Positions 6,001 to 18,000 of a DNA stretch of 49,622 nt are shown in pieces. Every line of letters starts with the position of its first letter. Within the stretch, counting starts at the first letter, position 1. This DNA comes from Phycisphaerales bacterium (GTDB lineage: Bacteria > Planctomycetota > Phycisphaerae > Phycisphaerales > SM1A02): the NCBI GenBank assembly GCA_044355685.1, contig JBIKXP010000001.1, forward strand, positions 1-49,622. The letters are read 5' to 3'. The position numbers are program-made.

Positions 6001-9000
6001 AGCAAGCGGAACTGAGTGGGTTCAAGCGGCCCGGCTTCGAGTGGCTGTTGGTCGAGCACGCGAGAGGACCAGTAGGAAGATGCCCGTGAAGAACTCGCTC
6101 ATGTCCACGATCGGCGGATGGTTCTCGCGCGAGCCATCGGTGCCCGTGGCCGTCGCGGTCTTCGGGAAGTCGGCCGTCGTCAACGGCCATCAGGATCTCA
6201 CCGGCGACGCGACGAAGTCGCTGCTCGAGTTCGCGCGCACCAGCTACTACGAGGGGGCGCTTCCCAACTGCTCGGCGTGGGAGGCGGATCTGCGCGATGG
6301 AGAGCGCGTCCTCGCCACGCATATTGTTCGGTGGTTCGGAGGCAGGTTGACGGTTGCGCGCGTCGCCGCGGTGGCCGAGGGCGGGGCGACCACCAAGGCC
6401 TTCGCACCCATGATCTCTTGCGTCGAGGTCGACGGCGCCCACGGCGTGGAACTCATGCCCGCGATCGACGAGGCGCTCGCCGGTATCGAGCAGTCGCTGC
6501 TCGACGCGCGTCCTGAGAATTGGGCCGCGATCCTCGCGCCCGTCAGGAGCTCGATGCTTGAGCGTCTCCATCGCTCCGCGTCGAAGGTGCCTTCGAGGTC
6601 CGAGTCCGATGCCGTCGCGACGGAGCATCTCGCCCGGCTCGGTGAATCGGCGACCGCGTGGGCGGAGAGTCTCGCCGAGGAACTCAACCTCGAGATGCCT
6701 TCGGCGGCGGGGGCGTCGCGCGTCGCCTCGAAGCCCGCGACGCTTGGCTGCCGCACCGCCGAGGCGCCACGAACCTGCGGCGACATCTCCTCCGACCTCC
6801 GTGGATGGACCGCCTTCCTCTGCACCGCGGCTCCCGGTCTTTCGGAGTGGTGGATGTTCGGCGGGGAATCGATCGCATCGATTCGCTTGGTCGTCGGCCA
6901 TCCACGTGACCGCGACTTCACGTGTCTCTGGCGCTCGTGCGAGTCGGCCGGGCTCGTGCCGCAGCCGCTTCCAGAGAGCGGCAGGGCGCGAGTTATTGAG
7001 CGAACTTCGATCTGGCTGAAGGGCCGCTCGATCGAGCCTAAATCCGCGACTCCCTCTTCGGACTCGGATTCCGGGGCCGCAGGAGGTTCGGATTGATCCG
7101 TGGCGCGCGCGCGGATGGTCGTGTTTGTGCGACCATCGGATCCCCGCGCCGCCCCGTTTCGACGTCGATTCGATTGACACCCCTCCTCCTGCGGGGTAGT
7201 AATGCCGGGTTCCACGCGGGACGGAGCCCGCCGGTTTGCGCGGCCGCTTTCGTCGGTCGCCGTGGCCAAGCGTCGGTTGGGCTCTCGCCAGAGTCCCAAC
7301 CGCGAGGCCCATGGCGTCCTCGCGGACCGCTCGACAGTCAGGATAGATGCAGGAAGCGTGATCGTCCGCGCACCACGACTGTGGACTCGAAGCTGTGATG
7401 CTGTGTCCGTGTTCGTCGTCGTCTTTGCCGCTGTCCGAGTTGGGCTTCAAGACCCTTTGCTGGGCTGCGTTTGCTGAAATCAACTGGAGATATTGACATG
7501 CGTCGTTCGGTGCTCTCGGAGCAAGTTGCGAAGACCCCCTCGGCATTGTTTCGCGCAACCGCTGCGCCGCGCCATGGGAATCGTTCCTCGGATCGCTCTC
7601 GGTCCGGGGGCTGCGTGCAGCGCCGCCTCCCGATCGGGCCTGCGACGAGCCTCGCCGGGTTCCTCTGGGCGTCGACCCTGCTCGGCGGCGTTGCCTTCGC
7701 CGATGCGATTCAGGTTGACGAGTTCACGGTGCGCTGGCAGCGGCCGGTCGGCCTTCCCGAGTTCGAGAAGCCTCGCGAGAACGTGAGCAACATCGCACTC
7801 GCCTGCGCCGAGTACCTCGCTGCGGTCGGAGGCGTCGACAGCGCCGGTCTGCTTGCGCCGATGCCGATCACGATCCTGAACAAGCCGCTCGGCTTCGGCG
7901 CCGTCATCCGCAAGTCTGAGGAAAAGCCGCTCGGCGAGTCGGGCCCAGACGACTTCGAGAACGCGCAGATGGTTGCGCCGACCGAGCTCGGCACCGTCGC
8001 GCAGGGGGTGTACCGCTCTGCGGTCGACTTCCTCGTCGAGCGCGCGAATCGCTTGGCAAACTCGGCCGACGTGCAGAAGGACCCGGTCGTCGAGAGGGCC
8101 ATTCAGGGATTCGCGACGTTCCTCTCCGATCCCTCGAAGCGATCGCTCGAGAGCCCGGCGTTCTGGACGCGCTTCAGCGTCATGCCCGGCAACATCGTCT
8201 GGTTCCACGACACGCGTACGAAGGTCGACGGCGAGCGCGAGGTCGGCGGACAGCAGGAAACGCTGCCGCTCCCCCGCGTGACCGCAGGCTTCACGGTCGA
8301 CACCGAATCCCTTGCGGGCCTCGCCCGTCAGTTCGAGAGCGCGCTCGAGGCGAACCTCTTCCTCCAGTCCGGAGACACGGACACGAGGATCGGCCTCGAC
8401 TTCGAGGTCGCAGCGCGGCCGGTAGGCGCTGGCTCGCGCACGGTCGAACTCACCGCTTCGTTCGTCGGCCCCGCCGAGGCGCCGGCCCTTCCGGTGCGAA
8501 ACTTCGCCATCACGTACCGAGGTGGAGATGGCTCTGAGCTGGCGACCGGCTCCGCTGACGCGCGCTACGACCTTCCCGATGCGCAGGCCGTGCTCGCCGC
8601 GACGACGGTCGCGCTGTACCGCGTGCGCGAGGGCGAGCGCACCTACCTCACCGACTTCGCTCCGGGGGCGAGCGCCGAGGATAGGGTCGATCTTCGCCTT
8701 GACACCGTCTTCGAGCAACCCGAAATGCTCTCGGTGAGCGCCCTACAGTCCGTGTTTCAGGCGGTGCTCGTGACGCTTCAGGCGGCTGAAGGCGACAGCG
8801 GCGTCGAAGGCGGCGATCTGATCGGTGTGTTCGTCGACGCAGACGACAACCAGCTCGATCTCTCGCGCGGCTGCCTCGACAGCAGGCCGGCCGACGCAAA
8901 CGGCGTCTTTAGGATCAAGGTCGTGCCGGGCATCGTCAGCAGCGTTCGCACCGTCGCCTCCGGCGAGCGCGTCTCGCCCGACGAGCGCGTGAATCCGCCC

Positions 9001-15000: not shown

Positions 15001-18000
15001 GAGATCACCGGCGCCGTGCAGTCGTCGGGTTCGCTGAGCTCGACCTCGGTCGGCGCCTCGACCTTCCGTGGCGCGGTGACCGCGGGCGACGACCTCACCA
15101 TCGCTGCGAGCAGCATCGGTCTCTTCGGCAACCTCACCGGTGGTGCCGACGTCGGCGACACGATCACCCTCACCGGTCCGGTCGTGCTCAACGCGGCTAA
15201 CTCGACCTGGAGCGCCGACGGCATCCGTGTGAACGGCACCATCGATGGCGCCACCGCCGGCGCGCAGACGCTTGCGCTTTCGGCGCTCGACCGCTCGATC
15301 CTGAGCGGCGGAATCGGCAACTCGGTCCGGCTCGGCGAGTTCCGCATCGTGAACGGCTTCACCCAGCTGGGAACGGTCGCAGGCGGCCTGTTCGTGGTCG
15401 ACGCCGACCGCTTCGTGCTCGAGCCGGCCTCGCGCCCGGCGGGCGTGGGCGTCGATCTCGCAAGCCCCGGAAACCTGGTGTTCAACGCCGGCGAGTTCAC
15501 GATGGCGCAGGGCACCAAGGCGACTGTCATCGGCGACTTCACCATCAACTCGGGCGCCGGCACCGTCCGCCTCAGCGATGTGAACACCATCGGCGTGTTC
15601 GAGGTGAACGCAGGGTCCATCCGGCTGGTGGCCCGCAATGGCGCCGGTGCACTGACCTCGATCGGAACGATAAGCGACACCGGCCTCGACTTCGTCTCGC
15701 TCGGAGGATTCCGGTTCTCCGTCGTGCCGGTCCTGGACGGCGTTGGCGCAGTTCGCTTCGCGTCGCCGAACGCGACCGGCGACCTGAACGGCACCCTCAC
15801 CAGCTTCGTCATGCTCAACCTCAACGACTCCGACCTCGGCCTCCTCGGCGAAGCCGGCGGCGTGGTCGCGGCCGACTTCGCGAACATGGCAACCTTCTTC
15901 GACCTGATCGCGGACGGAGCCAGCAACGCCAGCAGCGCGACGACGCTCGCTGCGCTTGCACCGGCCGATACCGAAGGCTCGACCGAACCGGGCGGCGTGG
16001 CGCTCTCCGCATCGGAGCGTCGTCGCCTCGAGGCGTTGCTTGGCGGCAGCATCGAGATCCGTCTGCCTGAAGTCGCCGAGATCCTCGAGATCGGCCGCGG
16101 CTCGGTCGCGTTCCGCGACCACGGCCGCAACGAAGTCGCGGCGCTCGCGGCCGGGTCCGACGTCGAGTCGGTCGCGGCGCGTGGCGGCGATTGGCGGCGC
16201 CCGCTGCCTGCGGTCGTTCAGCGCTTCGCAGGCGCGCGCGTGCGCGAACTGCTTGCGACGTCGGACGCGCTCAGCTCGATGCCGCGCGCTGCGCTCTCCT
16301 CGGCCGCCGGGGCGATCGCCGACGCCTATACGTCGCGCGCCTCGCTCGCATCGGTCGTCGAGAAGGCACGTGAGTCCGGCAACGCCGCCGAACTCGATGC
16401 CATGCGCGCAATCGGCCGCTGGGTCACGCTCGGCGAAGAGCTCGGCCTGACCGACGCCGAGCGGCGCCGTGCGGGCGATGCGCAGTCGATGTGGCCGCAG
16501 AGCCTCGTCACGCTGAACAGCGATCTCGAGTCGTTCAGCGTGCCTGCATCCGCATTCGACGCGGAGTTCTGGATGGCGCTCGAGCGTCCGATCGCTTCGA
16601 AGTGATGGAGTCGTTCGACGCACCCGCCGATCCGAGCAGGGTCTGGCGGGTGCGTCGAGTTCATGGACATGGTGGCAGTGGATGGCAGGCAACATGGCGC
16701 CTGCGTCGGGAGACCGGTGGGCATGGCCGACGACCGCGACTCGATGGCGTCAAGTCTTCTCGAGTCGCTCGGCGAGGACGAGTTGCTGCGCATTCTGTCG
16801 GAAGGTCTTGCGTCGCAGGCTTCCGACCCCGGTGGATCGGCATCTGACCGCGACGATCCCGCGGTAGCGCAGCGCCTGCTGGTCGGTGGAGTCGTGCGCG
16901 TGATCCTCGAGCGCTCCTTCCCCGCGCTCGCGGGCGGCGCGGACCTCGACGCCATCGAAGCCGACGTGACCGACGCCTTGATCGCGCATGAGCAGTCGCT
17001 CCGGCGGATCGAGCGTCTCGCCGCCTCGCTCCACCAGCGCTTCGACCATCGCGGGGGGCGCGGTTGAGCGCGCCGTCCGGTCGCCGTTTCTCGGCCGGTC
17101 GGCCAGACGACGCGCTCGAGATCGAGCGCGAGGTGCCTCCTCCGACCTCATCGCCGCGGCCGCAATCTTCGACTGCGTCTGACTCATCCTCGTCCTCGTC
17201 CTCGTCTTCCTCCGTGTCTGGCCATGCCGCAGGCCTTCTTGCCGAACTGGCGCTCGCCTCCGCGGCAAGCGACCAGCAACTCGGCTCGCTGCTCGGACTG
17301 GTGCACGGCATCGCGCGCGAGGTGCATCGGCGCATGAGCGGGCGGATCGAACTCGACGAGCTGATCTCAGAAGGCTATCTCGCGCTGGTGCAGTGCCGCG
17401 AGCGCTACGACGCTTCGCAGGGCGCGTCGCTCGCCACCTTCGCCTACCGTCGCATCGAGGGCGCGATGCTCGACCATGCGCGCAAGAAGCGCTGGTTCGA
17501 CGAGTCGCGCTACGCCGTCGGCGGCTACCTCTCGTCGATGCGCGAGGTGCTCGACGCCTCGATCGATGACTCGGGTTGGGAGGGTGCGTCGCGCGTCGGC
17601 GCCGACGCAAGATGGGCAGTGCAGGCCGTCGGCCGCACGGCCGTGGTCTCCCTCGCGCGTCGTGCCTTCGGCGACTCCGCTCCCGAGGGCGCCGCCGAGC
17701 GGGGCGAGTTGCTGCGCCGCATGCGCGACTGCCTCGAGATGCTTCCCGAGCAGGACCGGCATGTCCTCCGCAGGCTGTGGATCGAGGGATGGTCGCTCTC
17801 CGACCTCGGAGGCGAGCTCGGCGTCAGCAAGGAGTATGCTCGGCGGCTGAACGTGCGTGCGCTTGACCGCATGCGGCGGCTGATGGGCGCTGGTGCGACG
17901 GCGAAGGAAGGCGAAGAAGACGGCGGACAGTCCGCCGAGAAGGAGCGCTAGGGTGGCGGTACTCGAACACGCAACGGAGATCCTGGAGGCGATCCGCTCC

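Follow-up and report, generated by a model that had tools for sequence, protein, structure and literature searches.

The stretch of DNA described here, called the window throughout, comprises 49,622 nucleotides (nt) of a Phycisphaerales genome (contig JBIKXP010000001.1, positions 1 to 49,622), has a G+C content of 68% across its 49.6 kb and has its nearest relatives among metagenome-assembled genomes of the Phycisphaerales (Planctomycetota). It contains the core cluster of a type VI secretion system (T6SS) in which the membrane-complex genes and the remaining core genes are separated by tpsB and tpsA, a gene pair of the two-partner secretion (TPS) type, and both the T6SS core and the pair lie on the + strand (Table 1). 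The tpsB and tpsA genes are 102 nt apart, an adjacency shared by nearly all of the >80 related loci that were mapped, and the Pfam and NCBIfam matches of the two open reading frames (ORFs) identify them, at the level of sequence, as a complete two-partner (type Vb) secretion pair. An earlier note on this DNA had described a pair of this kind inside a T6SS cluster and on one strand with it, and in this it was correct. On the evidence of three samplings of related loci, its place beside the T6SS is not fortuitous.

Table 1. Features of the T6SS locus and of the tpsB-tpsA pair within it; positions are those of the window, lengths are in amino acids (aa) or nt
Feature	Position	Strand	Evidence or remark
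C-terminus of TssK, then TssL (DotU)	5' of tssM	+	Pfam/NCBIfam
tssM, left flank, membrane-complex module	1504..6015	+	IcmF-related_N PF14331, E 4e-34
338-aa TssM-adjacent conserved gene ('TagF-like', family label provisional)	6080..7096	+	
Promoter-like site	7174..7202	+	TTGACA, 17-nt spacer ending GGGG, TAGTAA; about 290 nt 5' of tpsB start
Shine-Dalgarno-like GGAGA	7486..7490	+	7 nt 5' of ATG; invariant block CTGGAGA..TTGACATGC.TCGTTCGG in four loci
tpsB, Omp85/ShlB-type outer-membrane transporter, 970 aa	7498..10410	+	
tpsA, secreted repeat protein, predicted beta-helical fibre, 2030 aa	10513..16605	+	
TPS secretion domain of TpsA, aa 70-213	10720..11151	+	PF05860, E 1e-13
In-frame tandem array in tpsA, 180 nt x 4.7 copies	13534..14382	+	92% identity; Tandem Repeats Finder
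Conserved C-terminal domain of TpsA, aa 1700-2030	15610..16602	+	last ~130 aa a confident helical bundle
Stem-loop, 9 nt after tpsA stop	16614..16659	+	dG -42 kcal/mol, z -5.95; 0/200 shuffles as stable
Small conserved ORF	16723..17067	+	114 aa, from M21 of a 134-aa ORF
Sigma-70-family factor, right-flank neighbour	17064..17951	+	regions 2 and 4; weak FliA/WhiG-like similarity
tssA-like gene, start uncertain, where the T6SS core restarts	17893..19086	+	TIGR03363 TssA E 5e-10, under family cut-off; weak ImpA_N match
530-aa VipA/VipB-like ORF, TssB, two TssC, ImpE, TssE, TssF, TssG, ClpV	3' of tssA-like gene	+	

The secretion domain near the N-terminus of TpsA was recognised not only by Pfam but also by the NCBIfam model adhes_NPXG (TIGR01901, filamentous-haemagglutinin N-terminal domain; E 3e-14), and it includes an NPAG motif at aa 123. 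After this domain come about 1500 aa of Gly/Ala/Ser/Asn-rich repeats, with no Pfam haemagglutinin repeats found in the protein, and the 180-nt array is a recent expansion of a 60-aa repeat in the shaft. TpsA has no cysteine. Hydrophobic segments were seen by eye near the N-termini of both translations, at about aa 55-77 of TpsB and about aa 20-37 of TpsA. Along its entire length, the C-terminal domain of TpsA (330 aa) shares homology with the C-terminal ends of two TpsAs encoded in stand-alone pairs (L010, E 1e-25; L011, E 4e-22); its identity is 54-69% in closer relatives and 33-69% across relatives in general, keeping pace with the remainder of the locus. An exhaustive sequence search of 1.84 billion representatives matched it to only 21 clusters, in which the match lay at the C-terminus wherever the protein was long enough to judge and the longer proteins were TpsA-sized. 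The AlphaFold2 (AF2) model of the domain was confident only for about aa 200-325 of the domain, with a predicted local distance difference test (pLDDT) score above 85, and no PDB fold match to this model was returned by Foldseek. TpsA proteins linked to a T6SS have a median length of 2623 aa versus 1322 aa for those that are unlinked (Mann-Whitney p 1e-4), several of the linked ORFs being truncated and already >3300 aa, and the protein in the window has 2030 aa versus about 1250 aa in its stand-alone relatives. The extra length of T6SS-linked TpsAs would fit a role in reaching or tethering other cells.

TpsB was matched by ShlB (PF03865) at aa 587-879 (E 2e-15) and is ~400 aa longer than a standard TpsB. 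Its ATG at 7498 is backed by a GGAGA-N7-ATG block that is invariant in the window and three related loci. A YTVRGY loop-6-type motif (T830-V-R-G-Y834) is invariant in 16/16 aligned homologues, and the ~480-aa region on the N-terminal side of the ShlB match is also conserved among 16 TpsB homologues. The AF2 model of the protein (pLDDT averaging 73 overall and about 85-90 in the unusually long predicted periplasmic N-terminal region, aa ~70-550) consists of roughly five alpha/beta (beta-alpha-beta) modules followed by a beta-barrel, the domain boundaries being drawn from secondary structure only. The top Foldseek matches of this model were BamA, CdiB, TamA and FhaC (E 1e-17 to 1e-13), which place it in the Omp85 superfamily, and the alignment with five-POTRA BamA extended over about 840 columns. 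A canonical TpsB has helix H1 and exactly two POTRA in a protein of about 550-600 aa; the 970-aa protein in the window departs from this arrangement, and no H1-like plug helix was confidently modelled in it. The model thus points to a TpsB-type transporter of variant architecture with a periplasmic region of BamA length.

Related loci were collected in three ways, and T6SS genes were mapped with iterated hidden Markov models (HMMs) built from the window proteins. Sampling by TpsB, limited to a single genome for each species, gave 80 loci, nearly all of them labelled Phycisphaerales, Phycisphaeraceae or Planctomycetota. TssL, TssM and a TagF-like gene lie directly 5' of TpsB-TpsA in 29 of the 56 of these genome loci that could be evaluated, and these loci form a second T6SS clade; 27 others have at least 8 kb of upstream sequence without T6SS genes, and 24 are too short to judge. 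The insertion point of the pair in one locus of this sampling, L076 (FHA-like, TssK, TssL, TssM, TagF-like, TpsB, TpsA, TssA [ImpA_N, E 4e-28], TssB, TssC), is that of the window. In L018, in which galactokinase and peptidase genes follow TpsA, the pair stays with the TssKLM membrane-complex module. Sampling by TssM in metagenomes supplied a denominator independent of TpsB, and here the pair follows the TagF-like gene in 9/33 loci and is lacking in 24/33 (present versus lacking, 7 versus 7 on contigs of at least 62% G+C and 2 versus 17 at lower G+C). Where the pair is lacking, TssA (L097) or TssB/TssC (L124) comes immediately after the TagF-like gene. The contig of the window was itself recovered from metagenome data as L087 (Ga0068872_10001221); an exact-sequence look-up of its TpsB matched no record. 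The third sampling, by homologues 57-94% identical to the 338-aa gene, covered the T6SS clade of the window itself, in which a long TpsB was present in 8/8 lineages having at least about 0.8 kb of downstream sequence. The right side of one of them, L166, agrees with the window gene for gene (TpsA, small ORF, sigma, TssA-like, VipA/B-like, TssB, TssC, TssC, ImpE, TssE, TssF).

The earlier note had looked to genome comparison to see whether related T6SS loci contain the pair, and orthologous loci do carry it at the same junction, in all of the evaluable lineages of the window clade and in the 29 loci of the distant one. The association with the T6SS that it proposed stands insofar as the pair is conserved at this junction, but the pair is dispensable for the T6SS family, as the TssM-sampled loci show. 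A search of the full-text literature, with incomplete journal coverage, found no paper on TPS pairs as conserved or recurrent members of T6SS loci. TPS pairs were also seen on two metagenome contigs of lower G+C: in L113 (4-18162; 45% G+C) two of them flank TssL-TssM, one divergent upstream and one downstream, and L119 (48% G+C) has a downstream pair. Because of these pairs, the linkage of TPS and T6SS may extend beyond high-GC Phycisphaerales.

The two clades of linked loci are far apart. Between the window clade and the other linked loci, the N-domain of TssM is only 21-28% identical, against at least 47% among those other loci, and the window-clade TssM marks a deeply divergent T6SS lineage. 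Over 28 linked loci, the pairwise distances of TssM and TpsB were correlated (Mantel r 0.78, and 0.85 without the window clade), a value reached by 0 of 2000 permutations. A neighbour-joining tree of the C-terminal 560 aa of TpsB placed most other T6SS-linked TpsBs in one large clade and the window protein in a separate 'long TpsB' clade, the other members of which include the stand-alone L009, L010 and L011, and L005, which is not preceded by T6SS genes. The L010 pair lies among housekeeping genes with no T6SS adjoining. The C-termini of second-clade TpsAs are conserved too, in step with overall divergence, and in the TssM tree the TPS-bearing and TPS-less loci are intermingled. These are distance trees with midpoint rooting, from which the number of gain and loss events is uncertain; the simplest reading of the sequences is long vertical co-inheritance within lineages together with several gains, losses or replacements at one junction. 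Since the TPS pair exists without an adjoining T6SS and this T6SS family exists without the pair, the pattern argues for an accessory, cooperative relationship, in which the pair is not a core or structural part of the T6SS.

The earlier note had also held that the pair is not a recent mobile insertion, and the composition of the locus bears this out: G+C and GC3 (G+C at third codon positions) of tpsB and tpsA are equal to those of the neighbouring genes, with no compositional shift, and no word of at least 12 nt is common to both junctions, so there are no flanking repeats of that length. The gap that separates the 338-aa gene from tpsB, given as 400 nt, measures 401 nt (7097-7497). It contains the promoter-like site, the TTGACA-N17-TAGTAA architecture of which is kept in an alignment with three related loci (L007, L002 and L088) and which had a single match in the window and 0 in 100 shuffles. 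A sigma-28-type GCCGATAA box that is present 5' of tpsB in L007 and L088 was not found in the window. At the other end of the pair, the small ORF and the sigma gene come next after tpsA; the claim that its stop abuts the sigma-factor mini-operon needs correction, as the strong hairpin lies between. This hairpin is terminator-like or a 3'-stabiliser, with the U tract absent, and in L166 the equivalent place is taken by a hairpin that differs in sequence (dG -44.9 kcal/mol, z -3.6). Both the promoter-like site and the hairpin came from alignment and folding; scanning for a strict sigma-70 consensus and for terminators with a U tract gave nothing significant, and an Rfam search of 6900-21100 gave no match. 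Because the promoter-like site and the post-stop hairpin are both conserved, the sequence suggests that tpsBA is its own transcription unit and makes simple co-transcription with the flanking T6SS genes doubtful; any co-regulation with the T6SS would therefore act in trans. The small ORF most likely starts at 16723 and overlaps the start of the sigma gene by 4 nt. It has no family match in Pfam or NCBIfam and is 54% identical to a 110-aa gene of L166 that starts at the equivalent Met, and the sigma-70-family gene is 74% identical to the L166 gene at the equivalent position. The sigma factor and the small ORF could be a locus-specific regulator pair.

On the left side, iterated HMM searches placed the 338-aa gene behind TssM in 31 genome loci and in the majority of the metagenome loci. 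In linked loci it is always directly 5' of tpsB, which starts about 100-750 nt past its end (about 100-500 nt in the TpsB-sampled genome loci). The label 'tagF-like' that the earlier note had given to it found no support: no Pfam family, TagF (DUF2094) included, matched the window protein or 11 homologues, and a profile of 12 sequences of the family searched against PDB sequences gave no TagF match. What resemblance there is presumably lies in the position after TssM and an FGKxPGWDDH motif only, and we keep the name as a provisional label. In the second clade the TagF-like gene is often fused to, or followed by, a region of 770-1200 aa with a weak FGE-sulfatase-like match (L046 4836-9374, L041 7139-9448, L049 5045-9697), and a second copy of the FGE-sulfatase-like region is often present 5' of TssK. 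No kinase domain was found in the 770-aa region of the second clade. We considered an FGE-sulfatase-domain partner common to both clades and rejected it, as the 770-aa region has no counterpart in the window, L002, L007 or L005. Homology of the 480-aa N-terminal extension of TpsB to the long C-terminal extensions of the second-clade TagF-like genes was likewise rejected, the TpsB extension being confined to the 'long TpsB' clade.

Elsewhere in the window, the genes beyond the tssA-like gene include, besides TssB, two full-length TssC paralogues and the 530-aa ORF, which pairs weak VipA-like and VipB-like matches (19139-20731, 21001-21489, 21561-23084 and 23214-24803); the same set is found in L166. 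On the minus strand 3' of the core genes lie a PAAR-like toxin-domain protein and a DUF2169 protein (36102-37646 and 38625-39644), and an MltA-type lytic transglycosylase is encoded farther along (45676-46968, +). At the expected position of VgrG there is an 828-aa minus-strand ORF (40675-43161) with no Pfam or PDB match. No Hcp was identified, and a 162-aa ORF after clpV (32124-32612) had no Pfam or PDB sequence match.

We propose, tentatively and with a little less than even confidence, that the pair is a long-standing, facultative accessory module of Phycisphaerales T6SS loci and that it likely acts as a tether or adhesin for attack. TpsA would be exported by Sec and then through TpsB, and would fold as a surface fibre tens of nanometres long that attaches to nearby cells, or brings kin together, in the water column. 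Such binding could prolong the cell-cell contact that the T6SS needs to hit its target. The pair would probably be transcribed from its own promoter and coordinated with the T6SS in trans, not by read-through. Adhesion on behalf of the T6SS is the best supported of the mechanisms considered, on the basis of protein class, fibre length and analogy, and we would place it just short of probable. Several points weigh against it. We infer the adhesive role of TpsA from its protein class alone, and no adhesin, lectin or receptor-binding domain was recognised in the protein. A promoter-like site of its own and the strong hairpin at its 3' end make the pair look insulated in transcription. Some half of the family's high-GC T6SS loci and most of its low-GC ones are without the pair, and the loci that have it are phylogenetically non-independent, so that the counts overstate the number of independent events. 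The operon boundary may be a permissive insertion site, in which case recurrence at one junction would partly reflect tolerance. Finally, L005 (676-8447) has a TpsB that is 63% identical to that of the window and groups beside the T6SS-linked L007, but in place of T6SS genes it has a TIG/FGE-sulfatase protein and two genes on the minus strand in front of it; in this lineage the pair has either moved or been duplicated.

Another explanation for the data is that the pair is co-located with the T6SS and mechanistically independent of it, exporting a fibre, cytolysin or other exoprotein for attachment, biofilm or attack on eukaryotic or bacterial cells and travelling in a 'competition island' at a tolerant operon boundary. 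The promoter-like site and terminator-like hairpin of the pair would fit this, as would the operation of the T6SS family without the pair in many loci, the occurrence of the same long TpsB and TpsA C-terminal domain in stand-alone homologues among housekeeping genes and the position of the close homologue in L005 away from T6SS genes. However, the same junction is occupied in two T6SS clades with TssM N-domains as dissimilar as 21-28% identity, the pair co-diverges with TssM and is retained in 8/8 evaluable window-clade lineages, it remains with the TssKLM module in the split locus L018, and the linked TpsAs are systematically about twice as long. We regard independence as unlikely, if a serious contender. 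A closer integration than tethering would be a contact sensor, in which the fibre signals target contact via the periplasmic region of TpsB and/or a retained TpsA C-terminal domain and so triggers or positions T6SS assembly, a role with its counterpart in the TagQRST-PpkA-Fha-TagF signalling of Pseudomonas aeruginosa. The pair always adjoins the TssM-adjacent gene, which in the second clade is often fused to large extra domains; outside the ShlB match, window-clade TpsB carries about 480 aa of periplasmic modules that are well predicted; and a long TpsB N-region goes together with the TpsA C-terminal domain in the window, L010 and L011. In CdiA and FhaB, C-terminal parts can remain periplasmic until a surface event, and a TpsA of this type might do the same. 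The argument is nevertheless a matter of inference throughout. Both tests of the neighbouring gene as a TagF failed, the window yielded no kinase or phosphatase, and stand-alone homologues with the same domains have no T6SS nearby. A sensor is in our judgement quite unlikely. The specific relay that it would entail, in which target binding by TpsA is passed on to the TssM-adjacent protein and the membrane complex, via the TpsB array or by release of the C-terminal domain, so that the T6SS fires at the point of contact, we hold to be improbable; if true, it would be the first type V system wired into a type VI system.

A structural role, with TpsB and TpsA standing in for a missing TssJ where the membrane complex is anchored in the outer membrane or exits through it, is suggested by the linkage of the pair to the TssKLM module and not the sheath module (L018) and by TssJ itself, since Pfam recognised no such lipoprotein either in the window or in the adjoining 8 kb of upstream contig sequence (L087 1-9000), although TssJ is small and divergent and Pfam could simply miss one. 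The many loci of the same T6SS family without the pair and the occurrence of the pair alone elsewhere argue against such a role; moreover, the T6SSs known to be without TssJ (Agrobacterium, Acinetobacter) are not known to need an Omp85 protein, and we judge replacement of TssJ to be very improbable. The gene order tpsB, tpsA, small ORF, the resemblance of the TpsB model to CdiB and the fact that both systems act by contact recall contact-dependent inhibition (CDI), which would make TpsA a CdiA-like protein with a toxin C-terminus and the small downstream ORF its immunity protein. TpsA, however, has no VENN, VDNN or ELYN pretoxin motif and no toxin family match in Pfam or NCBIfam, and its C-terminal domain is conserved and not polymorphic, with a model that has no enzyme-like fold match. 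The small ORF, for its part, overlaps the sigma gene, is conserved along with it and is separated from tpsA by the strong hairpin. Because the C-termini are conserved, VENN and toxin matches are lacking and the small ORF is tied to the sigma gene, toxin and immunity functions are disfavoured, and we consider delivery of a CDI-type toxin very improbable.

Sustained cell contact is needed for T6SS attack, and how planktonic bacteria come by it is an active question. This type of locus suggests that an environmentally widespread planctomycete order has repeatedly kept a fibre-secretion pair linked to T6SS membrane-complex genes, and, if the pair is a tether, the linkage could serve as a genomic marker for adhesin-assisted T6SS, extending the idea to a non-proteobacterial phylum. 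The prediction is that killing would depend on tpsA only when contact is not forced.

Among known systems, the nearest in setting is TasL, a giant putative lipoprotein encoded by a gene of >10 kb in the T6SS2 island of Vibrio fischeri, which is required for T6SS killing in hydrogel, not on agar, and promotes aggregation with prey (PMC9040878). Like the pair described here, it provides a very large, repeat-rich predicted surface protein inside a T6SS cluster, with homologues that recur in the clusters of relatives. TasL is not operonic with the core genes, and tpsBA likewise looks separately transcribed; by analogy, the part that TasL plays in cell-cell contact when contact is unforced is the function that we propose for TpsA. 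TasL differs in being a putative lipoprotein with FN3-like repeats; it is no TPS substrate, nor is any Omp85 exporter dedicated to it. No lipobox is apparent in the N-terminus of TpsA. No sequence relationship between the two is claimed, and the likeness is one of functional analogy only. In liquid, T6SS killing by Aeromonas is enabled by the adhesins CraAj/LapAj (bioRxiv 10.64898/2026.01.27.701733), and Aureispira combines grappling hooks with a T6SS in ixotrophy (bioRxiv 10.1101/2024.01.29.577165). In these systems an extracellular adhesive structure captures or aggregates cells for the T6SS, as TpsA may do, but that structure is a grappling hook or a CraAj/LapAj adhesin and not a TPS pair.

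In its construction, the pair is like FhaB/FhaC of Bordetella and other TPS adhesins (PMC5422565) in having a ShlB/FhaC transporter beside a TpsA with a TPS domain and NPxG motif, a long repeat region that is expected to be beta-helical and a C-terminal domain distinct from the shaft. It is unlike them in its 970-aa TpsB with about five periplasmic alpha/beta modules in place of H1 and two POTRA, in a TpsA without Pfam haemagglutinin repeats and with an orphan C-terminal domain, and in its setting inside a T6SS locus. With CdiB/CdiA/CdiI it shares the TPS architecture and, as proposed, action by contact, CdiB being among the best structural matches of the TpsB model; it differs in having no VENN, no polymorphic C-terminal toxin and no convincing immunity gene at the pair. 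Contact factors encoded within T6SS clusters are already known, and we would class the pair with them, here in the form of a type Vb system whose TpsB is atypical.

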